Shown here: piece after piece, positions 4,305-64,000 of the stretch
Numbering within the stretch: position 1 is the stretch's first letter
Layout: each line of letters begins with the position of its first letter
Assembly: GCA_041907025.1 (NCBI GenBank)
Contig: JAYRIB010000004.1
Location: 1,223-65,222 of the forward strand
Reading direction: 5' to 3'
Length of the DNA: 64,000 nucleotides
Source: Candidatus Saccharimonadia bacterium
GTDB lineage: Bacteria; Patescibacteriota; Saccharimonadia; CAILAD01; JADZBC01
Program-made: the position numbers and the translations under genes
The notes under the pieces: generated by a model
What the model saw: the letters and a program-made list of their open reading frames with translations, nothing else
Told to the model about the DNA's origin: nothing
The model's database searches: none

Positions 4305-6128
4305 ATGGCAGATCAGCTAAAAAATAAGGTAGACATCGAGGCTATGCGGCACTCGGTCGCTCATATGTTGGCCGCCGCAGTACAGAAGTTGCACCCTGAT
4401 GCGCAGTTTGGCGTCGGCCCAGTGGTGGAGAATGGCTTTTATTATGACATTAAGCCTAGTAAGGCATTGAGTAGTGATGATTTGGGCGCCATCGAAGCTG
4501 AGATGGCAAAGATCGCATTAGCCGATGAGGATTTTGTACGTGAGGAATGGCTGATTGACGAAGCCATAACGTATTTCAAAGAGCATAATCAGCCATTTAA
4601 GGTCGAGTTGCTCAAAGACCTCAAAACCAAAGGGACGACATCGCTGAAAGACACTGGCGATGAAAACTTAGTTGGTAATAATGTTGCTGGAGTTACAACG
4701 GTTACCATATACAGAACAGGTGACTTTGTTGACTTATGCCGCGGCCCACACATAGGAAGCACTTCTCAGGCCGGTGCCTACAAGCTTACCAAGCTGGCCG
4801 GAGCCTACTGGCGCGGGGACGAGAAGAATCCGCAGATGCAACGCGTGTATGGCGTGGCGTTTGCGACTAGTGAGGAGCTTGGTCACTATTTGGCCATGAT
4901 CGAAGAGGCCGAGAAGCGTGATCACCGTAAGCTAGGCAGAGAGCTCGACCTGTTTGTGTTCTCAGATCTTGTAGGTTCAGGCCTGCCGATGTACACGCCA
5001 CGGGGCACAATTCTTCGTAACCAGCTCGACAATTTCGTACAAGAGATGCGTAATGAGTACGATTACGAAGAAGTGTCTGTGCCGCACATAACTAAAAAGG
5101 ATGCCTACATTGCCAGCGGACACTGGCAGAAGTTCTCAGATGAACTCTTTAAGGTGAATACAAGGGAAGGGCATGAGTTTGCCATGAAGCCGATGAATTG
5201 TCCGCATCATGCTCAGATCTACGCAAGTCGCGCTCGATCGTATCGGGATTTGCCCATTCGTTACCGCGAGACGACGACGTGTTATCGTGACGAGCAGACG
5301 GGTGAGCTCTCGGGCCTTAACAGGACACGGGCCTTTGCTCAAGATGATGCGCATGTGTTCTGCCGACCAGAGCAAGTGCAAGAAGAAGTCACAAAAATAT
5401 GGAGCATTATTGAGAAGTTTTATGCCACACTGGGCTTTGATGACTTAACTGTTCGGTTCTCACGGCATGATAGCGAGAATATGGCGTCATATTCTGGCGG
5501 TGAAGCTGCTTGGAGGGATGCCGAAGCTCAGCTTCTTGCGATTATCAAAGACAAGGTAGGTGATGGTTACGTGGACGGTGTAGGTGAGGCTGCATTCTAT
5601 GGCCCTAAGATAGACTTTATGGGCCGAGATGCGTTGGGTCGAGAGTCACAAGTGGCAACCATTCAGCTCGACTTTAACCAGCCTGCTGGCTTTGGGCTTG
5701 AGTTTATCGATGAACAGGGCCAAAAACAGCAACCAGTGATGATTCACGCTGCAATCATGGGCTCGATTGAGCGTTTTCTGTCGGTCTACATAGAGCATGT
5801 AGGCGGTGCCTTCCCGACTTGGTTAGCCCCCGAGCAAGTCCGAGTCTTGCCGGTGTCGGATAAGTTTGCCGAGTATGGCGCTCAAGTAGCTGCCGAGCTT
5901 AAGGCCGCCGGGGTGCGTGTGAAGCTCGATGATGACAATGAGTCACTTGGTAAGCGCATACGTGCTGCTGAAGCCATGAAGGTTCCCTACACGCTCATAG
6001 TGGGTGAGAGGGAACAGGAAGCCGGCGAGGTGGCTGTGCGCAAGCGAGGCGAGGGCGACAAAGGCAGTAAGAGTTCCAGGGAGTTTGTGAAAGACATTCT
6101 TGCCGAAATAAGTTCACGAAAGGCTTAG
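4305..6128 (+). CDS. thrS: threonyl-tRNA synthetase
   Basis: Class II aaRS motifs HRKLGRELDLF, FAMKPMNCPHH and RDEQTGELSGLNRTRAFAQDDAHVFC, plus the N-terminal SAD-like RHSVAHML. Confidence 0.9.
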   Translation: MADQLKNKVDIEAMRHSVAHMLAAAVQKLHPDAQFGVGPVVENGFYYDIKPSKALSSDDLGAIEAEMAKIALADEDFVREEWLIDEAITYFKEHNQPFKVELLKDLKTKGTTSLKDTGDENLVGNNVAGVTTVTIYRTGDFVDLCRGPHIGSTSQAGAYKLTKLAGAYWRGDEKNPQMQRVYGVAFATSEELGHYLAMIEEAEKRDHRKLGRELDLFVFSDLVGSGLPMYTPRGTILRNQLDNFVQEMRNEYDYEEVSVPHITKKDAYIASGHWQKFSDELFKVNTREGHEFAMKPMNCPHHAQIYASRARSYRDLPIRYRETTTCYRDEQTGELSGLNRTRAFAQDDAHVFCRPEQVQEEVTKIWSIIEKFYATLGFDDLTVRFSRHDSENMASYSGGEAAWRDAEAQLLAIIKDKVGDGYVDGVGEAAFYGPKIDFMGRDALGRESQVATIQLDFNQPAGFGLEFIDEQGQKQQPVMIHAAIMGSIERFLSVYIEHVGGAFPTWLAPEQVRVLPVSDKFAEYGAQVAAELKAAGVRVKLDDDNESLGKRIRAAEAMKVPYTLIVGEREQEAGEVAVRKRGEGDKGSKSSREFVKDILAEISSRKA

Positions 6129-9914: not shown

Positions 9915-9953
9915 TATGTAGCCGGGGCTTCGCGGAGCCAGCAGTAGAGTGTA

Positions 9954-9987
9954 AAGAAAAAACCTCCTTGATCTAGGAGGTTTTTTG
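9954..9987. terminator. bidirectional intrinsic terminator between the MBL-fold gene and rpmB
   Basis: A-tract, perfect hairpin AACCTCCTTGATCTAGGAGGTT, then T-tract. It overlaps the last codons of rpmB on the minus strand. Confidence 0.7.
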
Positions 9988-10203
9988 CGCTTGTGCCTCG
10001 GTGGCGAGGGCAGCTTGTTTTTGGTACTTGTTGAGTGTACGGATGGTTGAAGCCGCTAGCTTGAGCCGTACCTTTTGGCCGTCTATGATGAGGGTTTTGG
10101 TTTGCAGGTTGGGCTTCCAGTCGCGCTTGGTATGACGCATGGAGTGACTCACGTTGTTGCCGAACTGCTTACCTTTTCCTGTGATGTCGCATTTGTATGA
10201 CAT
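9973..10203 (-). CDS. rpmB: 50S ribosomal protein L28
   Basis: MSYKCDITGKGKQFGNNVSHSMRHTKRDWKPNLQ matches the L28 N-terminus (CxxTGK...GNNVSHA..KTKR). Confidence 0.85.
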   Translation of the reverse strand: MSYKCDITGKGKQFGNNVSHSMRHTKRDWKPNLQTKTLIIDGQKVRLKLAASTIRTLNKYQKQAALATEAQAQKTS

Positions 10204-10359
10204 TGTTTGCTTCCTTAGCTTTTAGATCTGTCTCACGTCTTCGGCCTCTCAGAGCTGAAGTAACCTGAATATGATAGCATTTTTGCCGCGGGCTTGCAAT
10301 ACTTTGGCGCAAGGTTGCTGCGGGCGCACTAGCCCGGCCAGCAACAATCGATTATCATA

Positions 10360-21105: not shown

Positions 21106-22213
21106 TACGTCTCGTAACGAGCTAAAAGTCGCTATCGTCCATGACTGGCTGACTAATATAGGTGGCGCAGAGCGCGTGGTGGAGTCACTTTTGAAGGCGT
21201 ACCCCCAGGCGGATTTGTACTCGAGTGTGTACGATGCGGCTAAGCTGCCTCAGTTTAAGGGCCGCGTAACCACTTCGTTTTTACAGCACTGGCCATTGTC
21301 ACGACGTAAACACCAGCTCTACCCCGTGTTGCGAACGCTGGCTTTCGAGAGCTTTGACCTCTCATCCTATGACTTGGTGTTATCTAGTAGTAGTGCTGAG
21401 GCCAAGGGGGTCATTACGCCGACCGAGACGCTGCACATATCTTACATCCATACTCCGGTGCGTTACTATTGGAGCAACTATGACCAATACCTGGCCGACC
21501 CAGGCTTTGGGTTCCTTAATCCACTGGTGCGCTTGGTTGCGCCATTCTTTGTACGCAGAATGCGCCGTTGGGACTTCGCGGCTGCACAGCGACCAGATGC
21601 TCTGATTGCTAACTCAGAAACAGTGGCCAAGCGTATTAAAAAGTACTACAAGCGCGAGGCTAAAGTAATTCATCCGCCAGTAGATTTGGCTCGCTTTCAG
21701 TTGGGCAACGCTACAAGCGGCGATTATTACCTGATCGTTTCACGCCTGGTGCCCTATAAGCGCTACGATATCGCGGTAGAGGCGTGCAATAAGCTCGGTA
21801 AGCGGTTGATGATTGCTGGCAGTGGTTCGGAGCTCACCCATCTTAAAAAGCTTGCTGGCCCGACCATTGAGTTTAAGGGGTCGTTGTCTGAAGATGAGAT
21901 CACGCGCCTCTATGAAGGCTGCAAAGGGTTTTTGTTCCCCGCTGAGGAAGACTTTGGCATTACGCCGCTCGAAGCTATGGCCTGTGGTAAGCCAGTGTTG
22001 GCTTATGGCAAGGGCGGAGCGACAGAGACGGTAGTGGATGGTAAGACAGGCTTACTATTTGGCCATCAAACAGCAGATAGCCTGGCGGACGCCATAGAAC
22101 GATCTGAGACTATGGAGTGGGACAGTGCGCGTATTGCTCGCCACGCAGCCACGTTTAGTGAAGAGCGATTTATTAAACAGATTCATGAAGCGGTCTCGGC
22201 GCACCAAGCGTAG
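21095..22213 (+). CDS. GT4-family glycosyltransferase
   Basis: C-terminal GT4 signature EDFGITPLEAMACGKPVLAYGKGGATETVVDGKTGLLF. Confidence 0.75.
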   Translation: MVTSTSRNELKVAIVHDWLTNIGGAERVVESLLKAYPQADLYSSVYDAAKLPQFKGRVTTSFLQHWPLSRRKHQLYPVLRTLAFESFDLSSYDLVLSSSSAEAKGVITPTETLHISYIHTPVRYYWSNYDQYLADPGFGFLNPLVRLVAPFFVRRMRRWDFAAAQRPDALIANSETVAKRIKKYYKREAKVIHPPVDLARFQLGNATSGDYYLIVSRLVPYKRYDIAVEACNKLGKRLMIAGSGSELTHLKKLAGPTIEFKGSLSEDEITRLYEGCKGFLFPAEEDFGITPLEAMACGKPVLAYGKGGATETVVDGKTGLLFGHQTADSLADAIERSETMEWDSARIARHAATFSEERFIKQIHEAVSAHQA

Positions 22214-41997: not shown

Positions 41998-42012
41998 GCG
42001 ATCGTGATGTCC

Positions 42013-44070
42013 TTACAGCTTTGTAGAGATGACCTTGTTGCCGCTGAGCGCGTACAGGGTGCCGTCAGCGGTTACACTAAAGTCCTTTAGCTTTACTCCA
42101 GCTGGAGTGAGGTATTGCTGCTTGTACGCAAAGCCATTACCATCGAGGTTTATGCCGACAATTTGTTGCTGGTTTGTTCCAAGAGCAATGATTGACTGCT
42201 CGTTTTGAAGTATAAGCTTAGTTAGGCCTTTGACCGAAGTTGCCAGGTCGGTAATTGAAGCGGGTTCGCCAATACCGTTGGTGAACGTTGTAATTTTAGT
42301 ACTGCCATCGACCATTAAGATAGAACCGTTGATGGCGAGAGCAGTGCCTTTGGCTACACTTGCAGCGTTTGCCCGTTTAATATAGCTTGAGCTCGCGCTA
42401 AAACCAATCGAGGTGCGACTGTGTCGGTAGATTTGATCATTCTGAGGTGAGAGGATATAGAGGTTGCCAACATAACTCGCAATGGCGTTGCCAGCGATCC
42501 AATTGCCGCCACTTAGTTTGACCGTAGTAAGTGGTTTTCCAGGTATAAACTGCAGCACATCTGGTGCAGAGGTTAGGATGAAGATGCTATCTCCAAGCGA
42601 AGACGGTGTTGCGGCGACGGCAAGCTTTAGGCTACTGTTTTGAGCTACGATGCTTGATGATTTGCGGGCAATGTCTATCTGGTACAGGGCGCCTGCATTC
42701 GTATCAACCGTATACAGCCGGTCGTCGAGTTGCACAATGAAATTCGCAGTAAACTTCTTTACTGATGTAAAATCTACAATATTATTAACTTTAAGTCGGG
42801 TGATGTTGCTTAGCTTGTCGTTGACGGTAGAGAGGCGCGCCGCTAACTCCTGAGGGCTAATGCTCTTTTGGCTGCGCAAATCACTGTCCATTTCAAAGGC
42901 GCGGCTGATTTGTTGAGCATTATAGGCATTGGTAATTGCCTCTAGCTTGGTGGTGGCTGATTTTGTGGAGGCGGCACTACCATCAACTTGCCCTAAACTC
43001 TGTTTGGCCTCGGCGCTTTCGGTCAAGGCAACCACTTCTTTGTAGTCTGTCACTAAGTCTCGATAGTTCGTGGTATTGGCGGAATACAGGTACGAACCGA
43101 TTCCAATGCACAGGACCAGCCCCAGAGCGATCACGAGCGCTTTGCGCGGGTTTGGGTTAATATACTTAGTCCACAGGTTGTTCCAAATGGATTTGCTATG
43201 ATGTTTGGCATTCGGCCAGGCTTTGGTTTTCCACCAGGAGTGAGACTTGCTAGCAGCTGCTTTGACAGCTCCAGAGGCCTTGAGCGCGAGCGGTGCGCCA
43301 GCAGCCTTTACCTCGTCGAGCTTGGTTTGCGATTTACCTACCATGACGGTGTCGGGTTGGCCTTCGAGGGGTTCGTTTGAGGCCTGTTCCAGGTCGCTGA
43401 GCTCAACTACAAGGGCGGCACAGCGTGCACTGCTTGCCTCACCCTCGAGTTGGCTACTCATTTTATGTACGCAGCTGGCAGGAGAGTTGTCGATTACCAG
43501 CTGGTTGAGGGAACTGGCTTCGAATTCAAAGAGGACTGCGGGTGTGGCAAAGAGCAGTTTATCTTTTTGCTTGAGTGTGCCCTCGGCAATGCCGTGGAAG
43601 GTTTTGCGCGGGCTGCTGCCTGCATTCAGGCCCTCAGCTAAGTCGGTAAGCTTGGAGCCTCGGTACAGGCGTGCATGCGCCTTGCCACACTGGGATAAAT
43701 AGAGCTGATCTTGATTCAGTATGGCTACAACTGCACTGAGACTACTAATGTGCTTGGCATGATGTGATTCATTGAGTCTGGCGAGTTGGCTGTTCAGGGC
43801 AGCGATGGACTTTTCGAACCGAGTGCTCGGCTCGTCATCAAACTTCTTGTTAAAGTATTCTTCACCCATAGTCTTAATAACCAAATCGACTATTTGACTT
43901 GCTAGGGACTCCTTGGCCATGACTTCGATGACAACAAATAGGCTACCAAGTTGGAGTTTTTGCTCAATCGGTGGCTCGAAATGGTAGGCAAATGCCAAAG
44001 CCGGCACACTGGAGTGCTTCGTGGGGTATGGTACAAGTTTGGCTACGCGCTGAAGGAGGGGTGTGTTCAT
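42013..44070 (-). CDS. membrane protein: cytoplasmic PP2C-like (possibly inactive) N-domain, one TM helix, extracytoplasmic beta-rich C-domain
   Basis: GSLFVVIEV and LYLSQCGKAHARLYRGSKLTDL loosely match PP2C motifs (fgVfDGHGG; lanvGDSRa.l.r.g) but lack the metal-binding Asp residues. TM helix ALVIALGLVLCIGIGSYLY. Start at MNTPLL (44070); the ORF extends to 44427, overlapping the divergent helicase gene. Confidence 0.35.
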   Translation of the reverse strand: MNTPLLQRVAKLVPYPTKHSSVPALAFAYHFEPPIEQKLQLGSLFVVIEVMAKESLASQIVDLVIKTMGEEYFNKKFDDEPSTRFEKSIAALNSQLARLNESHHAKHISSLSAVVAILNQDQLYLSQCGKAHARLYRGSKLTDLAEGLNAGSSPRKTFHGIAEGTLKQKDKLLFATPAVLFEFEASSLNQLVIDNSPASCVHKMSSQLEGEASSARCAALVVELSDLEQASNEPLEGQPDTVMVGKSQTKLDEVKAAGAPLALKASGAVKAAASKSHSWWKTKAWPNAKHHSKSIWNNLWTKYINPNPRKALVIALGLVLCIGIGSYLYSANTTNYRDLVTDYKEVVALTESAEAKQSLGQVDGSAASTKSATTKLEAITNAYNAQQISRAFEMDSDLRSQKSISPQELAARLSTVNDKLSNITRLKVNNIVDFTSVKKFTANFIVQLDDRLYTVDTNAGALYQIDIARKSSSIVAQNSSLKLAVAATPSSLGDSIFILTSAPDVLQFIPGKPLTTVKLSGGNWIAGNAIASYVGNLYILSPQNDQIYRHSRTSIGFSASSSYIKRANAASVAKGTALAINGSILMVDGSTKITTFTNGIGEPASITDLATSVKGLTKLILQNEQSIIALGTNQQQIVGINLDGNGFAYKQQYLTPAGVKLKDFSVTADGTLYALSGNKVISTKL

Positions 44071-49243: not shown

Positions 49244-50224
49244 ATGCGCATACTTTCGGGCATTCAGGCTACTGGAAAACTACACATCGGCAATTATTTG
49301 GGGATGGTTAAGCCATTTGTAGACATGCAGGATAAGGGTGAGGCCTTTTACTTTATTCCAAACCTACACTCACTCAATGTTCGCCCCGACCCAGAAGTGC
49401 TGCGGCAAGACACACTGGCGAATGTTGCGTGGTTTTTGGCAGCTGGCGTAGACCCTAAAAAGTCAGTTGTGTTCACTCAATCGCATGTGTCGGCGCACTC
49501 AGAGCTATGCTGGATACTCAATAACTTCGTTACTATGGGTGAGCTGAGCCGTATGACGTCGTATAAGGACAAGAGTGCTTCAAGGGGCGCCGAGGGGCAG
49601 CTCGTAGCGCTTTATACCTACCCGGTACTCATGGCTGCCGACATTATTCTCTACGATGCTGAGCTGGTGCCTGTCGGGGAGGATCAAAAGCAGCACGTGG
49701 AGCTGACTCGGGATATCGTAGGGCGTTTTAACAAGCTCTATGGCGACACATTCGTGGCCCCAAAGGCAGTTCTGCCCTCCGTTGGGGCACGCATCATGAG
49801 TCTGCAAGACCCATCGAGCAAGATGAGCAAGAGCGATCCGAACCAAAGCGGCAACATAATGCTCCTTGATGACGAGCTGACGATTAGAAATAAGGTTAAA
49901 CGAGCCGTAACAGATGCTAAGGGCGAGGTGAAAGTGTCTGAACACGGTGGCGCCGTTACTAATCTCATGCACATTTATAGCGGTTTTTCCGGTAAGAGCA
50001 TGCATGAAATTGAGCAATTATACGTAGGTAAGGGGTATGGGGACTTCAAGTCCGATCTAGCAGACATTCTAGTGGAGGAAGTCAGTGTTTTACAGCGTAC
50101 ATTCCACGCGTTAATGGCTGACGAAGACTACCTACTTAAGGTTCTCGAGGACGGTGCTATGCAGGCCAACCAAATAGCCACCCAAAAACTTAATGAAGTG
50201 AAGCAAAAGCTCGGCATACTATAG
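49244..50224 (+). CDS. trpS: tryptophanyl-tRNA synthetase
   Basis: SGIQATGKLHIGNYLG (HIGH) and KMSKS. Confidence 0.9.
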   Translation: MRILSGIQATGKLHIGNYLGMVKPFVDMQDKGEAFYFIPNLHSLNVRPDPEVLRQDTLANVAWFLAAGVDPKKSVVFTQSHVSAHSELCWILNNFVTMGELSRMTSYKDKSASRGAEGQLVALYTYPVLMAADIILYDAELVPVGEDQKQHVELTRDIVGRFNKLYGDTFVAPKAVLPSVGARIMSLQDPSSKMSKSDPNQSGNIMLLDDELTIRNKVKRAVTDAKGEVKVSEHGGAVTNLMHIYSGFSGKSMHEIEQLYVGKGYGDFKSDLADILVEEVSVLQRTFHALMADEDYLLKVLEDGAMQANQIATQKLNEVKQKLGIL

Positions 50225-50286
50225 TAGAATGTAGTATTTACAACACACTTTTACAGGTTAGGGCAGACGAAATAGCATAAAAAGTA

Positions 50287-50315
50287 TTGACGGAAGCATA
50301 AGCATTTGCTATACT
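50287..50315 (+). promoter_or_regulatory. near-consensus sigma70 promoter (TTGACG, 17 nt, TATACT) at the head of an ORF-free region
   Basis: TTGACG at 50287-50292, a 17-nt spacer, then TATACT at 50310-50315. Confidence 0.5.
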
Positions 50316-50321
50316 TGTATC

Positions 50322-50826
50322 AACATAAGTTAGTCCTTTAAAACAAAAATAAAACTCAAAAAGTTTCTCCAGGAAAAGGTAGCCCGGACTCTACGAGCGG
50401 GCGAGTAACGGTAGGGCAAGCCCGGCATAGAAACAACCCCCTTGTTTCTAGTCGGACTCTCCCTACTGTTCTATGGGTAACAAGCCGCTAATGTTCGTAC
50501 GTTCTAGGCTTAAGTTATACACTACCCGTTGGCTATAGCCAGTAAACTGCATCGGATCGCAACCAGCGATAGGTATAGCTTACTGGCTAAACCGGACGGA
50601 TGGTGGGGAAGCGAGACTTTGACAAAAGCAGTGATGCTTGTGTCACACAACAGTCTCACCTGTAAGCTTGGCCTCATTGGCTAAGGTTACTTACCGGGCC
50701 TCCGCGTGCCAATTTGTTTCTTAACATTAGGGCAGATGCGATTAGAGGCCCGTAACCATGCAATCATAGTCGTTCAGACTACTTCGCACAATAATGTCGA
50801 CTCGGCACAACGTGCGGAGTTTTTTA
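50322..50826 (+). ncRNA. candidate ncRNA of about 500 nt, unidentified; bounded by promoter and terminator
   Basis: No ORF of 60 aa or more on either strand between 50225 and 50836. Internal perfect hairpins TAGAAACAA ccccc TTGTTTCTA, GGCTATAGCC and CCAGTAA...TTACTGG. Terminator CTCGGCAC aac GTGCGGAG plus TTTTTTATTT at 50801-50830. Confidence 0.35.
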
Positions 50827-51051
50827 TTTGGCTTAGTTAGGGCTTGAGACGTGGTGCTAAGAGTGACGCGAAGTAAAGCAATCTTCGCAATTCGAATAGA
50901 ACAAAAAAGTAGCTCATTACGCTTTGGAATATGTCACTAATAAATATAGTGTTCATATAAACGTGTGGTAGTGTTCGATTCTTTGGGTAAGTTGTTGCTA
51001 CGGGCGTGCCTGCTTGAGCTGAAGGTCCATATCTGGGATAATAGGTGCTAT

Positions 51052-51453
51052 ATGGCAAAAACAGACAAGCTACAGAAGGGGATATTTGGGGTAGGGCTTG
51101 TTACTTCGTGCCTACTTTCCTTTACAGTGCTCCTTAGTTTAATGGTTATGGCGAGTCCATCCGAGCTTGGACCTGCCGGTGTTACCCTATGGTTTATTCT
51201 GGCCCTAATAGCCCTTACGACGCTGTTTATGTTACTGTACTGGTCGTACAGTCGAAAAAAGAACAGCTTTGTGAACGGTCGTAGGCAGTCAGTCGGTGCA
51301 TTTAGGGTGGCAGTAGTGCCAGCTGGCGCCATTGTAGTTCTGCTAGGCATGAGTAGCCTCGGTACGCTGACATTGCACGATACACTGCTCGTGCTGGGTG
51401 CCACATTTATTATTGAGACTTACTTGTACACAACCGAGAGGAGGGGGCTATGA
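51052..51453 (+). CDS. small integral membrane protein (four predicted TM helices)
   Basis: Hydrophobic profile. Start at MAKTDK after AGGTG; the ORF extends to 50965. Its end overlaps the pheS start. Confidence 0.4.
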   Translation: MAKTDKLQKGIFGVGLVTSCLLSFTVLLSLMVMASPSELGPAGVTLWFILALIALTTLFMLLYWSYSRKKNSFVNGRRQSVGAFRVAVVPAGAIVVLLGMSSLGTLTLHDTLLVLGATFIIETYLYTTERRGL

Positions 51454-52424
51454 GCTCAATCATTGAATCCGCGCGGAGCGCTGCCGCAGCCGCCCAAACT
51501 GAGAATGATTTACAGCTTGTTAAAGCGCAGTTTCTAGGTAAGAAGAGCGAGCTCCAGGCCGGTTTGCGCGCGCTTTCAAGCCTGGGCCAAGAAGAGCGCA
51601 AGCAAAAGGGAGCCGAGCTTAACCGTCTAAAGCTGGAGCTCGAAGAAGTATTTTCTTTGCGCCATGCTTCGCTCCTCAACGAGCTTGATGCCCTACCGCC
51701 ACTTGATCTTACGGCACCTGGTATTGGCCAGGGGTTTGGCCATGCCCATCCAGTAACGCTCGTTATGAGTGAGCTATATAGCTCGTTTACTCGCTTGGGC
51801 TTTGCGATAGTTGATAGCAACGAAATAGAGGATGACTGGCACAACTTTGAGGCACTGAATATGCCGCCGCACCACCCGGCCCGCGATATGCAGGACACGT
51901 TTTATATTAAGGACAGCGAAGACTCTCATCGTATTCTGCCTCGTACTCACACCTCTGGCATGCAGGTACGGTTTATGAAGGATAACAAGCCACCGTTTAA
52001 GATCATCGTGCCGGGCAAGGTTTTCCGGAATGAAGATGAAGACAGAACACACTTGTGGTCATTTACCCAGGTGGAAGGTTTGGTTGTGGGTGAAGGGGTG
52101 TCGTTAGTACATCTTAAAGGCGTGTTACTTGCAGCTATGAAAGACTTGTTAGGTGAAGACACAGAGATTCGATTGCGACCGAGTTATTTTCCTTACACTG
52201 AACCATCGATTGAGATCGACGTGACTTACAAGGGAGAGTGGTTGGAGCTTCTGGGTGGCGGCATGGTACACCCAAGTGTACTACAGAACGCTGGTATTGA
52301 CCCTGAGCGCTATAGCGGTTTTGCCTTTGGTATCGGGCCGGAGCGGGTTGCTATGGTGAAGTATCGCATCTCGGATTTACGCAACTTTTGGCGACCAAAG
52401 CTTGACTATCTGGAGCAGTTTTAA
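51450..52424 (+). CDS. pheS: phenylalanyl-tRNA synthetase alpha subunit
   Basis: Class II motifs HPARDMQDTFY, FRNEDEDRTHLWSFTQVEG and GFAFGIGPERVAM. Confidence 0.9.
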   Translation: MSSIIESARSAAAAAQTENDLQLVKAQFLGKKSELQAGLRALSSLGQEERKQKGAELNRLKLELEEVFSLRHASLLNELDALPPLDLTAPGIGQGFGHAHPVTLVMSELYSSFTRLGFAIVDSNEIEDDWHNFEALNMPPHHPARDMQDTFYIKDSEDSHRILPRTHTSGMQVRFMKDNKPPFKIIVPGKVFRNEDEDRTHLWSFTQVEGLVVGEGVSLVHLKGVLLAAMKDLLGEDTEIRLRPSYFPYTEPSIEIDVTYKGEWLELLGGGMVHPSVLQNAGIDPERYSGFAFGIGPERVAMVKYRISDLRNFWRPKLDYLEQF

Positions 52425-55237
52425 TGAAGCTTTCCGTTAAAACACTCAATACTTACCTTAAGAAACCACTTACTACAGAGCGAGTAGTTGAGCTTCTGGG
52501 CCGCACTGAAGTTGAGATTGAAGAGGTTGTTTCAGCTAACACCTGGGACGAGAAGATCATTGCTGCCAAGGTCCAAGAGGTACGGCAGCATCCAGACGCT
52601 GATCGTTTACGCATAGCCACCGTTGATACTGGGTTGGAAACTGTAGAGATTGTCTGCGGTGCACCGAACTTGGCTCAGCACCAAGTTGTTGTCTTGGCGC
52701 AAGTTGGCGCCACATTGCCTGATGGTTTGCGGATCGAATCGGCTAAGCTTCGTGGAGTAACTTCGAATGGTATGCTGTGCTCGGCCAAAGAGCTTGGTAT
52801 TTCAGACGATCATGCTGGGATTATGGTGCTACCAGATGAAACACCACTTGGCGCAACATTGTGCGACATATGGCAAAAGGGCGACACCCTTGATATAAAG
52901 ACACCTGCAAACAGGTGGGATTATCTTAGTTTTGTTGGGCTGGCCAGGGAAGTGGCTGCTCAGGATGAGGGGAACGAGCTGGTAGAGCCACCAGTCGAGG
53001 AAATTACATATTGCGACACTGAACTTGTAAAAGTCAAGGAAAAGGGGGAATGTAGGCGATTCGTGAGCGTTAAGATGTCTGTGAATAACGCTGTGAAGTC
53101 CCCGCAGTGGCTTGTGGATAACTTAGAAGAGAATGGCCTGCGCAGCATTAGTCCTGTTGTAGACATTACCAACTTTGTCATGCTTGAGACTGGCCAGCCT
53201 TCGCACGCTTACGACGCCAAAAAGCTACACGGTGCGTTGCAGGTACGCTTTGGCTCCCCCACCGATAAACTTACAACATTAGATGGCGTGGTGCGCAACT
53301 TGGGTGTTGAGGATCTGGTGATAGCAGACGATAGTGGTGTAATAGCCTTGGCGGGCGTGATGGGCGGCGTGAGTACTGAAGTTGACGCCCAGACGACCGA
53401 GATCCTCTTGGAGGTTGCCAACTTTGACCGCACAAGGGTGCGTAAGGCGGCATTAAGACACGGTTTGCGCAGTGAAGCGTCGGCCCGGTTCGAGCGCTCA
53501 CTCCCTCTCCCCTTGCCTACTTTGGCAGCTAGTCGACTTATATCCTTACTTAAAGAAGTTGCTGAGGCAAAGGTGATTGACTCCCCTTGTGACCAGCTCT
53601 ATGGTTGGCCTTGGGTTCAGCAAATTGGCTTACGTTTACGCAAGGCGGAAAAGCTCTTAGGCACGCCGCTTGATGAAAAGCAGGTGATGAGTGGGCTCAA
53701 GCAGCTCGGATTTGAAGTTGAGCATTTTAGTATTACCAAGGAATCGCGCAAGCACCTAGGTAAGCCGTATATCTGGGGTGCAAATTTCCGAGAGCACGGC
53801 GAATCTGGCTTTGATTGTTCATACCTCATTGATCGCATCTATTCACGCATTGGTGTGCATGTTGGCCACGTGGCGCTTGGTCAATTCCACTTTGGGCGGC
53901 CAGTCGAGGTTGGTGACTTACGCCCAGGCGACGTGGTATTTTACGAAGGCTTAATTAAGAATTCACCAACCGATCACTACTATGTGGCCGACGGCCGCGG
54001 CGGTCACACTAAGATCGAACTTGACAAGCCTATGAAGGTGGGGCATAACGGCATATACATTGGCGACAACCGAGTAATAACTGCTATTCAGTATGAACGC
54101 AAAGGAGAAGACTGGGTTCCTCGGGCCGAGCAAGGCGTGATCGAGGTGCCATTAAGTGACTTCACCAACGACCCAACTTATCTGGGTGCTCGACGCTATG
54201 TTGAGAACTTTAATCATATTCTGGCTATCACAGCACCTTGGTGGAGGACGGATGTGCGCTTAGAAGAAGACATGATTGAGGAAATCGTGAAGATTATCGG
54301 CTATGATGCGATTCCAGCTGAACTACCTCCCCTGCCTCCAACCAACACGCGACCGCATCAACTACTTCCACGGATACTGGAGTTTAAAAAGGCATTGAGC
54401 GCTAGTGGTCTGCAAGAGATTGTGTCATATTCATTTATTAGCGAACGCTCGATTAAGCGCCTGCATCAGAATCCCCATGACTTTCTTGAGATCGCAAACC
54501 CGCTCAGCCGCGAACAGCAATTCTTGCGTCGATCAATGCTACCGAGTCACCTCGATATGGTCAGAAATAACCAGACGTATGCGAAGGAGTTTTTGTGCTT
54601 TGAGGTTGCTCGCACCTATCGGCCCACACAAGACGGCGCTTTGCCAAGCGAGATTTGGCAGCTGGGTATTACGGTGGTGGGTCCGCAGAGTACCCTGAGA
54701 CTTAAAAAAGTGTTCGATAATGTAGCTCAGTATTGTGGCGCCAACCTCGAGTACCAGCCAGTTGATGAGATGCCGTTTGTACCTGGCCGAAGGGCAATAG
54801 TTAAGCAGGAAGAAACTCACCTTGGTAGCTTTGGCCAGTTGAGTAAGCAAGTGCTTGCAGCGAGCGAGATTAGCGCAGAAGTTAGCTATGGCGAGCTGGA
54901 GCTGGGTGAGTTGCTCGGTAGTGAAACGCAACTACATGTTGCTGATCTGCCTGACTATCAGCTTGTAAGGCGTGATATTACGTTTAGCTGCCAATCAGGA
55001 GTGGCTTGGACAGATGTGTGCCGCCTTGTAGCTCAGTCTCAGGGTGTTATGAAGGTTGAGTATCTCGATCAGTATCAGGATGCAGCAATGCAGAAGGATC
55101 GTATTAAGCGTTTAAGTTTGCGTTTGTGGTTCGATCTTGGCGCCAACCCAACTGCTGAGGAGATCAAGAAGCGCCAGGATGCAGTTGAACGAACGCTGAC
55201 ATCGAGCGAAACACTGGGCAAAGTCACAATTAACTAG
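52424..55237 (+). CDS. pheT: phenylalanyl-tRNA synthetase beta subunit carrying an inserted NlpC/P60 domain
   Basis: N-terminal tRNA-binding domain, B3/B4, B5 (...LGTPLDEKQVMSGLKQLGFEVE / ITAPWWRTDVRLEEDMIEEIVKIIGYDAIP), core and C-terminal FDX domains. 937 aa against a typical length of about 800, owing to an insert of about 160 aa. Confidence 0.85.
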   Translation: MKLSVKTLNTYLKKPLTTERVVELLGRTEVEIEEVVSANTWDEKIIAAKVQEVRQHPDADRLRIATVDTGLETVEIVCGAPNLAQHQVVVLAQVGATLPDGLRIESAKLRGVTSNGMLCSAKELGISDDHAGIMVLPDETPLGATLCDIWQKGDTLDIKTPANRWDYLSFVGLAREVAAQDEGNELVEPPVEEITYCDTELVKVKEKGECRRFVSVKMSVNNAVKSPQWLVDNLEENGLRSISPVVDITNFVMLETGQPSHAYDAKKLHGALQVRFGSPTDKLTTLDGVVRNLGVEDLVIADDSGVIALAGVMGGVSTEVDAQTTEILLEVANFDRTRVRKAALRHGLRSEASARFERSLPLPLPTLAASRLISLLKEVAEAKVIDSPCDQLYGWPWVQQIGLRLRKAEKLLGTPLDEKQVMSGLKQLGFEVEHFSITKESRKHLGKPYIWGANFREHGESGFDCSYLIDRIYSRIGVHVGHVALGQFHFGRPVEVGDLRPGDVVFYEGLIKNSPTDHYYVADGRGGHTKIELDKPMKVGHNGIYIGDNRVITAIQYERKGEDWVPRAEQGVIEVPLSDFTNDPTYLGARRYVENFNHILAITAPWWRTDVRLEEDMIEEIVKIIGYDAIPAELPPLPPTNTRPHQLLPRILEFKKALSASGLQEIVSYSFISERSIKRLHQNPHDFLEIANPLSREQQFLRRSMLPSHLDMVRNNQTYAKEFLCFEVARTYRPTQDGALPSEIWQLGITVVGPQSTLRLKKVFDNVAQYCGANLEYQPVDEMPFVPGRRAIVKQEETHLGSFGQLSKQVLAASEISAEVSYGELELGELLGSETQLHVADLPDYQLVRRDITFSCQSGVAWTDVCRLVAQSQGVMKVEYLDQYQDAAMQKDRIKRLSLRLWFDLGANPTAEEIKKRQDAVERTLTSSETLGKVTIN

Positions 55238-62005: not shown

Positions 62006-62012
62006 GAGCATC

Positions 62013-64000
62013 ATGGCAGATACAACCGACAAGCAAGCTAAAGAACCCCAGATGACGCCCGAAGAGCAAACAAACCAGGCGATGATTGAGAGTGGTATTG
62101 GCCAGGTAGAATTCCGCACCATTGAAACGGAAATGGAGAAGAGCTACCTCGACTATTCCATGAGTGTCATCGTTTCACGCGCGTTGCCTGATGTGCGTGA
62201 CGGGCTCAAGCCAGTGCACCGACGTATACTTTTCGTAATGAACAACCTTGGTCTGCGCCACGGTTCTAAGTTCCGCAAGAGCGCCACCGTGGTTGGTGAT
62301 GTGATGGGTAGCTATCACCCTCACGGCGATAGCGCAATCTACGACGCCATGGCTCGTATGGCGCAAGACTTTTCGATGCGCTACATGCTGGTTGATGGTC
62401 AAGGTAACTTTGGTTCGATTGACGGTGACTCGCCAGCCGCCATGCGTTATACCGAAGCTCGCATGCAGAAGCTCACCGAGGAGTTGTTGGTCGACATCGA
62501 CAAAGACACCGTGGACTTTAGACCCAACTACGATGGTAATAAGCGTGAGCCATCAGTCCTGCCAGCTAAATTACCAAACTTACTCTTAAACGGTGTACAG
62601 GGTATTGCCGTTGGTATGGCAACTAATATCCCGCCTCACAATCTAACCGAAATCGTCGATGCCGTAATCCATATTATCGACAACCCCGAAGCTACCGTCG
62701 CCGATCTCATTGGTATCGTGACGGGTCCAGACTTCCCGGGTGGGGGGATTATCTTTGACGACGGCGGCATAGCTCAGGCCTACGGCACGGGCAAGGGTAG
62801 TATTGTGATGCGGGCTGATGCTGAGATTGAAGAAGATAAAAAAGGCCGCCAGCGTATTGTAGTTACCTCAATCCCATTCCAGGTGAACAAGTCTACCCTA
62901 GTGACCAAGATTGCCGACCTGTATCACGAGAAGAAGCTGATTGGTATCTCTGACGTACGCGATGAATCATCAGACCGTGTCGGCGTGCGCATTATCATTG
63001 AGCTCAAGAAAGACGCTTACGCTCAGAAGCTCCTAAACCAACTCTTTCGCTTAACGCCCCTGCAAACTACCTTCCACGTTAATATGCTCGCCTTGGTGAA
63101 TGGTATTCAGCCGCGCGTGCTCAACCTTGAGATGGTCTTGCGTCATTACCTTGACCACCGCAAGATCGTGGTGCGTCGTCGCACTGAGTTTGAGCTGCGC
63201 AAAGCGCAGGCCAGAGCGCACATTCTAGAGGGCTTACGTATTGCCCTTGATCAGATCGATAAGGTTATTTCGACCATCCGGGCGAGCTCGACCAAAGAAG
63301 AAGCCCTTGCCAACTTAATTAAGAACTTTAAGTTGACCGAGATTCAAGCTAAAGCTATTCTCGACATGCAACTGCGGACCCTGGCTGGCTTGGAACGCAA
63401 AAGGATTGAAGATGAGTACAACGCACTCATGTTGTTAATCAAAGAGCTCGAGACCATCCTGAGCGACGAGGCCAACATCCTTAAAGTTATTCGTGAAGAG
63501 CTGGTTGAGCTTAAAGAAAAGCATGGCGACAAACGCCGAACTAAGGTTGTGAAATCAGCTATTGGTAAGTTCTCGGATGAAGATTTGATCCCGAACGAAG
63601 AAGTGATTATTACCTTGACGACTGGTAACTACATTAAGCGCATGCCATCAAATACCTATACGGCGCAAGCGCGTGGCGGTAAAGGTAAAATCGGTATGGC
63701 CACCAAGGAAGAGGACGTGGTAGAGCACATGGTGCAGACGAATAACCACGATACCATCCTGTTCTTTACCTCGCTCGGGCGGGCCTTTAAGCTGAAAGCG
63801 CACGAGGTGCCAGCTTCATCCCGTACTGCTAAAGGCCAGGCGATCGTTAATTTACTGAATCTGAGTCCAGACGAGCGTGTCACTTCCTTGCTGACGATTG
63901 AGAAGGACAATGCCTCCAAGTTCCTGTTTATGACCACCAAGAACGGGGTAATCAAGAAGACAGCGATTACTGAGTATCAGAATGTCCGAGCCAGTGGACT
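62013..64000 (+). CDS. gyrA: DNA gyrase subunit A (3'-truncated by the window end)
   Basis: MADTTD...[27 protein letters not shown]... with the active-site region [15 protein letters not shown] lies 4 nt upstream; no stop codon before the window end. Confidence 0.9.

Follow-up and report, generated by a model that had tools for sequence, protein, structure and literature searches.

To our knowledge, the bacterial RNAs that are both large (>300 nt) and intricately folded so far fall into only a dozen or so classes, and those with solved roles that we know of are all ribozymes, cores of ribonucleoproteins (RNPs) or self-assembling RNA architectures. The OLE RNA (~610 nt) is encoded directly upstream of oapA, the gene of its partner protein with four transmembrane helices (4-TM). 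A transcriptome preprint on TM7x states that no small RNAs were validated (10.1101/2022.03.25.485537), and a survey of 224 motifs holds for TM7 only the lysM-TM7 motif, which is unrelated to the element described here. A literature search on Saccharibacteria, Patescibacteria, the candidate phyla radiation (CPR) and TM7, combined with non-coding RNA (ncRNA), Rfam and structured RNA, found nothing about this element. It lies in a stretch of 64,000 nucleotides of contig JAYRIB010000004.1 from a Candidatus Saccharimonadia bacterium (assembly GCA_041907025.1), hereafter called the window, between trpS and the gene of a small membrane protein. A first-pass annotation had proposed that this gap holds an undescribed structured ncRNA of ~500 nt bounded by a promoter and a terminator, and conservation, covariation and the lack of a matching Rfam family support the proposal. 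With moderate confidence, we regard window positions 50287-50829 (+) as the gene of a previously undescribed, ~505-nt structured ncRNA that is independent, probably abundant and trans-acting, and that represents a new family.

The transcription unit consists of a promoter, the ~505-nt RNA and an intrinsic terminator. The sigma-70 promoter described earlier, TTGACG-17-TATACT, is present; it matches the consensus at 10 of 12 positions and has a TG extended -10 in addition, and transcription would start near 50322. A motif of the type TTGAC(A)-N16-18-TAnnnT stands upstream of the RNA in 30 of the 30 loci examined. The promoter spacer is unusually conserved and includes a tandem AAGCAT that is kept in more than 20 of these 30 loci. 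The sequence AAGCATAAGCAtTTG (window 50293-50308), which contains this tandem repeat, is kept across clades with tryptophanyl-tRNA synthetases (TrpRS) that are 50-60% identical. An AAGCAT-type spacer was not seen at the promoters of RNase P RNA or tmRNA in the window, and the spacer may serve to bind a regulator. At the other end, the proposed terminator CTCGGCAC-AAC-GTGCGGAG-TTTTTT was found at 50801-50825. Its stem (50801-50819) contains one G.G mismatch and was missed by a consensus terminator scanner; the conserved upstream CUUCGCAC pairs perfectly with the 3' arm GUGCGGAG, followed by U6, and this stem corresponds to the terminator stem of the relatives. In every relative the element ends in a GC-rich hairpin with a U-tract, the sequence of which differs by clade; in clade C the hairpin has 9 bp, six of them compensatory (clade-wise RNAalifold). 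The terminator follows the last conserved block, CCCGUAACCA, at a distance of 20-45 nt, and the linker between them is not conserved. Between terminator and next gene there is an extended -10 box (TGnNAnAAT), in the window at 51034-51042 and likewise at loci L003, L090, L001, L104 and L113. The RNA's own promoter, the clade-variable terminator past an unconserved linker and the downstream -10 boxes therefore argue for a stand-alone RNA gene and not for a regulated attenuator. The element thereby combines what is generic for stand-alone ncRNA genes: promoter, terminator, conservation confined between them, covariation and no conserved open reading frame (ORF). As a separate observation, the downstream genes begin 5-10 nt after the extended -10 boxes (TGGGATAAT...ATG at window 51034-51054; TGGTAGAAT-AAATT-ATG at L113 2113-2133), which suggests that their mRNAs are leaderless or near-leaderless.

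Conservation of the locus was followed within ±4 kb. A trpS-anchored scan of species genomes gave mostly unrelated phyla at ~50% identity, with L001, L003, L035 and L045 as useful loci, and close relatives were gathered by a TrpRS protein search and contig look-ups. TrpRS relatives in public assemblies are 100, 90, 87, 86, 83-81 and ~62% identical. The gene order in the window is RmuC-trpS-[RNA]-small 4-TM protein-pheS-pheT, and six close relatives and two members of the ~62% group have RmuC-trpS-[530-1120 nt, no called gene]-small protein-pheS-pheT. With an nhmmer profile, the element was recognised downstream of trpS in the 62% group and in two species genomes of Saccharibacteria (L035 and L045), and 18 loci with identical synteny were added when metagenome contigs were scanned for exact occurrences of a 24-base signature from the 3' domain. 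Covariance models of two core domains, R1 and R2, recovered a further full-length member (L113) and short variants (~350-450 nt) in other Patescibacteria (L001, L090, L003, L112 and L114). In total, genomes and metagenomes supplied more than 30 loci, including relatives with a TrpRS that is only ~50% identical. Every locus has one forward R1 match and one R2 match, in constant order and strand with R2 always 3' of R1, and the rest of the 64-kb window has no other match to either model. In line with the proposal, the element is conserved in relatives, from the promoter exactly to the terminator and not beyond (blastn, MAFFT). Against the closest relatives, nucleotide identity reaches 89% in the RNA, 77% in trpS and 65% in the membrane-protein gene, and it falls to 54-59% in the spacer past the terminator; these comparisons show purifying selection from promoter to terminator that does not extend further. 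As far as seen, the family is confined to Saccharimonadia-type Patescibacteria (CPR), and the 3' signature was not found in viral contigs.

A structured RNA had been proposed from the single sequence, and covariation among relatives supports a multi-helix fold. The minimum free energy (MFE) of the plus strand is -194.7 kcal/mol (z = -8.2; minus strand z = -5.4), and model R1 scores ~2x higher on the plus than on the minus strand. The MFE folds of all members contain equivalent hairpins in constant order with unrelated sequences. Across clades, MAFFT did not align the variable arms well enough for RNAalifold, and clade-wise and covariance-model alignments were therefore used; E-values are rough, as they come from a shortened model calibration. 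RNAalifold on all 24 distinct full-length sequences found two universally alignable domains, P3 and P8. In a full-length alignment of clade B (10 sequences), 98 pairs are arranged in seven helices, 93.2% of cells are paired and 38 of the 98 pairs are compensatory, compared with 38-46% paired cells in slid-partner controls. The window's own clade (7 sequences) adds 14 compensatory pairs, including pairs in P2, P5, P6, P7 and P8. The alignments show compensatory substitutions that preserve at least seven helices (P2, P3, P5, P6, P7, P8 and the terminator). They also show two core domains common to all variants, P3 with its CCCCC loop and P8 with a GAU bulge that only the most divergent short variant lacks. 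The features of the transcription unit, in window coordinates and 5' to 3', are as follows.

50287-50315, plus strand: promoter of sigma-70 type, TTGACG-N17-TATACT, with spacer AAGCATAAGCATTTG kept across clades.
50322-50365, plus strand: 5' tail, predicted single-stranded; AAGUUAGUYC..UUAAAAC is conserved and followed by an A-rich, G-poor tract, unpaired in consensus folds.
50382-50402, plus strand: P2 hairpin GCCCG/CGGGC with a loop of UGRnCUC type; 5 bp in clade A, two of them compensatory.
50409-50468, plus strand: P3 domain, an interrupted long hairpin, GUAGGG...CCCUAC, whose CCCCC loop at 50437-50441 is invariant (model R1, alignment A6).
50469-50480, plus strand: joiner UUCUAUGGGUAA, consensus UGUYCnAGGG, from conserved columns in alignments A3/A4.
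50481-50519, plus strand: variable region P4 with lineage-specific hairpin(s), predicted from single sequences only; length and sequence vary by clade.
50520-50605, plus strand: P5, a long hairpin arm (50531-50593) on the base helix CACUACCCG/CGGAUGGUG (50520-50528 with 50597-50605), from covariation.
50602-50611, plus strand: purine-rich element GGUGGGGAAG, consensus GGUnGGGAAG, overlapping the P5 base.
50613-50657, plus strand: P6 hairpin GAGACU...AGUCUC with inner stem GACAAAAGCA/UGCUUGUGUC, from MFE fold and covariation.
50662-50690, plus strand: P7 hairpin GUAAGCUUGGCC/GGCUAAGGUUAC, from covariation.
50695-50752, plus strand: P8 3' domain with stacked CGGGCCUC/GAGGCCCG, CGC/GCG and UGCC/GGCA helices, a GAU bulge (50735-50737) and an AU-rich loop (model R2, alignment A12).
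50753-50759, plus strand: single-stranded UAACCAU after P8, invariant (within CCCGUAACCA) in all full-length members.
50782-50829, plus strand: intrinsic terminator; CUUCGCAC (50782-50789) or its inner copy CUCGGCAC (50801-50808) pairs with GUGCGGAG (50812-50819), followed by UUUUUUAUUU.

Several of these parts had been noticed as hairpins or palindromes from the letters alone: the hairpin TAGAAACAA-CCCCC-TTGTTTCTA is exact at 50428-50450, and GGCTATAGCC and the arms CCAGTAAACTG/TAGCTTACTGG are present. The motif TTAGGGCAGA, said to occur at both ends of the transcript, has two copies (50258 and 50727), the first of which lies outside it; since that copy precedes the promoter and relatives do not keep it, we take it to be chance. 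Within the family, conservation is highest in the core formed by P3. Its 24 pairs, 11 of them compensatory, were counted over 21 distinct sequences aligned with the model as guide, with 91.7% of cells paired; none of 500 shuffles reaches the observed values and slid partners are 36-52% paired. Model R1 of this domain finds a single forward match per locus, short variants included. Possible contacts of the CCCCC loop do not covary, as every candidate partner is invariant. P8 has 16 pairs, six compensatory, and 92.2% paired cells, against 28-42% in slid controls; its GAU bulge occurs in all full-length members and in two of three short variants (L090 and L003-type) and is absent only from the most divergent one. 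The long arm P5 is supported by 24 bp with six compensatory pairs in clade A and by 23 bp with 18 compensatory pairs in clade B (helix 3), and in its base helix ACUA/UGGU changes to AUCG/CGGU. For P6, the counts are 9 bp of the inner stem with two compensatory pairs (clade A) and 11 bp with five (clade B, helix 4); for P7, they are 12 bp with one compensatory pair and five half changes (clade A) and 7 bp with four compensatory pairs (clade B, helix 5). A P2-equivalent hairpin of different sequence is found in every MFE fold. The 5' tail hardly varies between close relatives, and it is rich in A in every full-length member (alignments A1-A3). Within this tail, a small conserved hairpin AUAUGCCACAC(AC)AUAU was observed at L092 ~5115-5135, in other clade B members and at L113 1625-1645; it is absent from the window's clade.

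The invariant elements between the helices offer several pairings. GGU.GGGAA is invariant in 24 of 24 full-length members, and in some lineages the GGUnGGGAAG element might pair with a CCUCC-like, pyrimidine-rich 5' element. The resulting helix P1 (CCUCC-like element with GGGAAG) is good in the window, L088, L107, L090 and L003; in clade B it is no better than shuffles. The joiner may pair with ACCCG at the P5 base or may contact the C-rich loop, and in clade B an alternative helix of the joiner (helix 2) has 7 bp with two compensatory pairs. ACCCG itself can pair with the joiner UGUYCnAGGG or with GGAUGGU. A long-range AUGGU/ACCAU pairing was rejected, as UGGU covaries with the 5' strand of P5. 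The UAACCAU segment is absent from the short variants, which have GUAACUC, GAACUU or GCUAUC instead, and a tRNA-like ...ACCA 3' end was likewise rejected, as ACCA is not kept there.

An Infernal scan against known families had been suggested as a check, and it assigned none. At gathering thresholds, the Rfam 15 matches in the window are RNase P RNA, tmRNA and two tRNAs and no others, and eight related loci have no match; at permissive thresholds (E<10), the element draws chance-level matches only, and in seven divergent members the RNA draws none. The reported absence of a signature of signal recognition particle (SRP) RNA or of a T-box is borne out, in that the motifs are missing from the element sequence. 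These results bear on the idea that the RNA is a known housekeeping RNA (6S, SRP, or a second RNA of the RNase P or tmRNA kind) that in CPR bacteria has diverged or expanded so far as to escape the Rfam models. Dispensable DNA of 500 nt is seldom retained in the small genomes of symbionts, the promoter looks strong and constitutive like those of stable RNAs, and neither 6S nor SRP RNA was found in the 64-kb window, although their absence there is expected by chance for a ~1 Mb genome. The element shares with 6S RNA and other abundant housekeeping regulators a stand-alone single-copy gene with strong sigma-70-type promoter and terminator, and lineage-wide conservation. However, 6S RNA is a rod of ~180-200 nt with a central bubble and paired ends, whereas the element is multi-branched, 350-540 nt long and has no conserved 5'/3' closing stem, and no 6S-type Rfam model matches the window or the divergent members. 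SRP RNA gives no Rfam match either and the GGAAGCAGCC-type domain IV motif is absent from the element, while RNase P RNA and tmRNA, which had been located elsewhere in the window and are confirmed by Rfam 15, are both canonical. We therefore consider a disguised housekeeping RNA very unlikely. In size, complexity, lack of a protein product and discovery as conserved ORF-free DNA with covariation, the element is also reminiscent of GOLLD, ROOL, raiA and HEARO/omega RNA. It has no Rfam match to any of these, lies among housekeeping genes and not next to tRNAs, prophage or transposase/IscB genes, was not seen in viral contigs, and is, within the sequence covered, strictly single-copy at a fixed, vertically inherited chromosomal locus.

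Some points weigh against an independent RNA gene. Transcription start, termination efficiency and stability are all inferred from sequence. Covariance-model alignments lean towards the modelled structure, a bias of which the slid-partner controls and the MAFFT-only alignment of clade B are independent, and the junction and tertiary pairings (P1, joiner, P5 base) are ambiguous. In every locus the next genes lie downstream of the RNA and point the same way. At L003 and L112, a gene on the minus strand separates trpS from the RNA, which has kept its place immediately before the membrane-protein-pheST operon, and this arrangement fits a leader too. Position says little about partners in any case, because the whole block is syntenic in small genomes. 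The main alternative is a cis-acting 5' leader of the membrane-protein-pheS-pheT operon, an attenuator that senses a protein, a tRNA or a metabolite and whose fold would set whether RNA polymerase runs past the terminator. Like T-box and other leaders of aminoacyl-tRNA synthetase (aaRS) operons, which commonly have such leaders, the element is structured, precedes pheST and ends in an intrinsic terminator. A T-box-like element does occur in the lineage: a sub-threshold match (RF00230, 41.3 bits, E 1e-5), picked up by the permissive Rfam search of the divergent members at L001 2566-2761 (+), upstream of a 240-aa ORF and trpS on a Patescibacteria chromosome, suggests that T-box regulation exists there. 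For the element itself, RF00230 has no match at E<10 in window 50150-51100 nor over the RNA in the seven divergent members, and its sequence contains no GGUGGNACCGCG-like block and no conserved anti-terminator overlapping the terminator. A reading of UGUUCnAGG as a T-loop or Phe specifier was rejected: this UUC, the sole candidate Phe specifier, is UCC in the L092 clade (clade B) though pheS follows there. UGGU in GGAUGGU covaries with the P5 5' strand and so is not free as a specifier. Moreover, the element is 2-3x longer than T-box or aaRS-operon leaders and at 350-540 nt far larger than known leaders, and the unconserved linker, the clade-dependent terminator sequences and the -10 boxes of the downstream genes speak against attenuation. 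In L104 (orf125 and purD) and L113 (guaA), plus-strand genes other than pheST follow the RNA terminator, with the RNA still adjoining trpS. Four independent rearrangements (L003, L112, L104 and L113) thus split the RNA from trpS or from the membrane-protein gene, and it is strictly tied to neither neighbour. Taken together, we judge a cis-acting leader to be unlikely and favour the stand-alone RNA gene. Of separate note, both insertions right after the RNA terminator (L104 1653-3331 and L113 2131-3663) carry purine-nucleotide genes (purD and guaA, respectively), which may be coincidence or point to a preferred landing site.

The gene downstream of the RNA (51052-51453) is always located just upstream of pheS and overlaps the pheS start. 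Its product has 133 aa with four predicted transmembrane helices, and a homologous four-helix protein of 123-133 aa follows the RNA in all loci, distant short variants included (alignment A7). The family is marked by the motifs P..LGP.G.T.WF, SSLR.L..D..L and E.Y.R.R, by the invariant residues P36, G40, P41, W47, F48, D110 and E122, and by the nearly invariant R85 and R126 outside the helices. All of its 207 matches come from Patescibacteria/Saccharibacteria-type records. This constellation invites comparison with OLE RNA (RF01071) and OapA, and hence the reading that the RNA binds the adjacent 4-TM protein and works at the membrane as an RNP. Both RNAs are large (~500-600 nt), contain many helices and conserved blocks between variable arms, are restricted to certain lineages and are encoded directly upstream of the gene of a small four-helix membrane protein; the arginines outside the helices and the lineage restriction of the protein family would suit such a partnership. 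The RNAs themselves, however, share no sequence or structure match (RF01071, E<10), and OLE is found in extremophilic or anaerobic Firmicutes, where it is embedded in a long operon, whereas the element has its own promoter and terminator. The 4-TM protein matches no Pfam or NCBIfam family (among the 207 relatives none has a Pfam assignment, bar one precomputed match) and its predicted four-helix fold gives generic helical-bundle matches only. Adjacency is weak evidence in a syntenic block, and in two lineages (L104 and L113) 1.5-2 kb of other genes separate the RNA from the 4-TM gene. A membrane-associated RNP of the OLE RNA-OapA kind is attractive as a variant of the main reading, yet improbable in our view.

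The gap between the trpS stop (50224) and the next real start (ATG at 51052) measures 827 nt. It had been described as free of ORFs, which is true for 50225-50836, where the longest ORF on either strand has 51 aa, and fails near the right-hand end: a minus-strand ORF of 73 aa (50837-51058) overlaps that end of the interval, and a GTG-extended frame of the membrane-protein gene begins inside it at 50965. The suggestion that the region might encode small peptides found no support. As an mRNA for small peptide(s), or a dual-function RNA, the element would have ORFs of 20-51 aa to offer in the window copy, and a short AUGCCACAC... frame that recurs in clade B past the A-rich tract. Yet from one relative to the next the ORFs lie elsewhere, in other frames and with other lengths, no Shine-Dalgarno sequence precedes any of them apart from one 12-aa frame in L101, indels do not come in multiples of three, and stem substitutions are compensatory. 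A coding role is therefore extremely unlikely, and the comparisons show the RNA to be non-coding and single-copy per locus.

The wider window is tightly packed, as had been stated and as a crude ORF tiling of the 64 kb bears out. Other gaps of at least 500 nt in the tiling include those with RNase P RNA and tmRNA, and three more exist. The intervals 9915-10359, 21606-22124 and 62006-63655 contain no ORF of at least 80 aa in this tiling and no Rfam match lies over them. An apparent 1.2-kb gap at 41998-43246 was rejected, as an 804-aa minus-strand ORF covers it. Downstream of the RNA, pheT (52424-55237) encodes a phenylalanyl-tRNA synthetase (PheRS) beta subunit of 937 aa into which a domain resembling NlpC/P60 peptidases (PF00877) is inserted; such a fusion is unusual among tRNA synthetases. 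A DCSYL...H motif is visible in the insert, which is present in every relative examined.

Concerning its mode of action, the stand-alone RNA would be made as a discrete, abundant and stable transcript that acts in trans. By analogy with other large bacterial RNAs, it would most likely be a component or scaffold of an RNP. The invariant unpaired elements (CCCCC loop, GAU bulge, GGUnGGGAAG, GUAACCA and the A-rich 5' tail) would then be surfaces for tertiary contacts or for partner binding, and one candidate for such a partner is the lineage-specific 4-TM protein encoded alongside. Going further, one might tentatively propose a lineage-wide, essential housekeeping RNA of Saccharibacteria/CPR, a ribozyme or RNP core that is possibly anchored to the membrane via the co-inherited 4-TM protein and has no counterpart in other bacteria; we rate this as possible and not as probable. 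The family provides an alignable target for an Rfam family, for mapping of metatranscriptome reads, for cryo-EM and for genetics in cultivable Saccharibacteria, and the annotation of thousands of metagenome-assembled genomes of Patescibacteria would improve. CPR bacteria have a minimal and poorly understood cell biology. An RNA that takes up ~0.05% of a symbiont genome of about 1 Mb, and whose conservation exceeds that of trpS next to it, would point to an RNA-based CPR function that annotation has missed.

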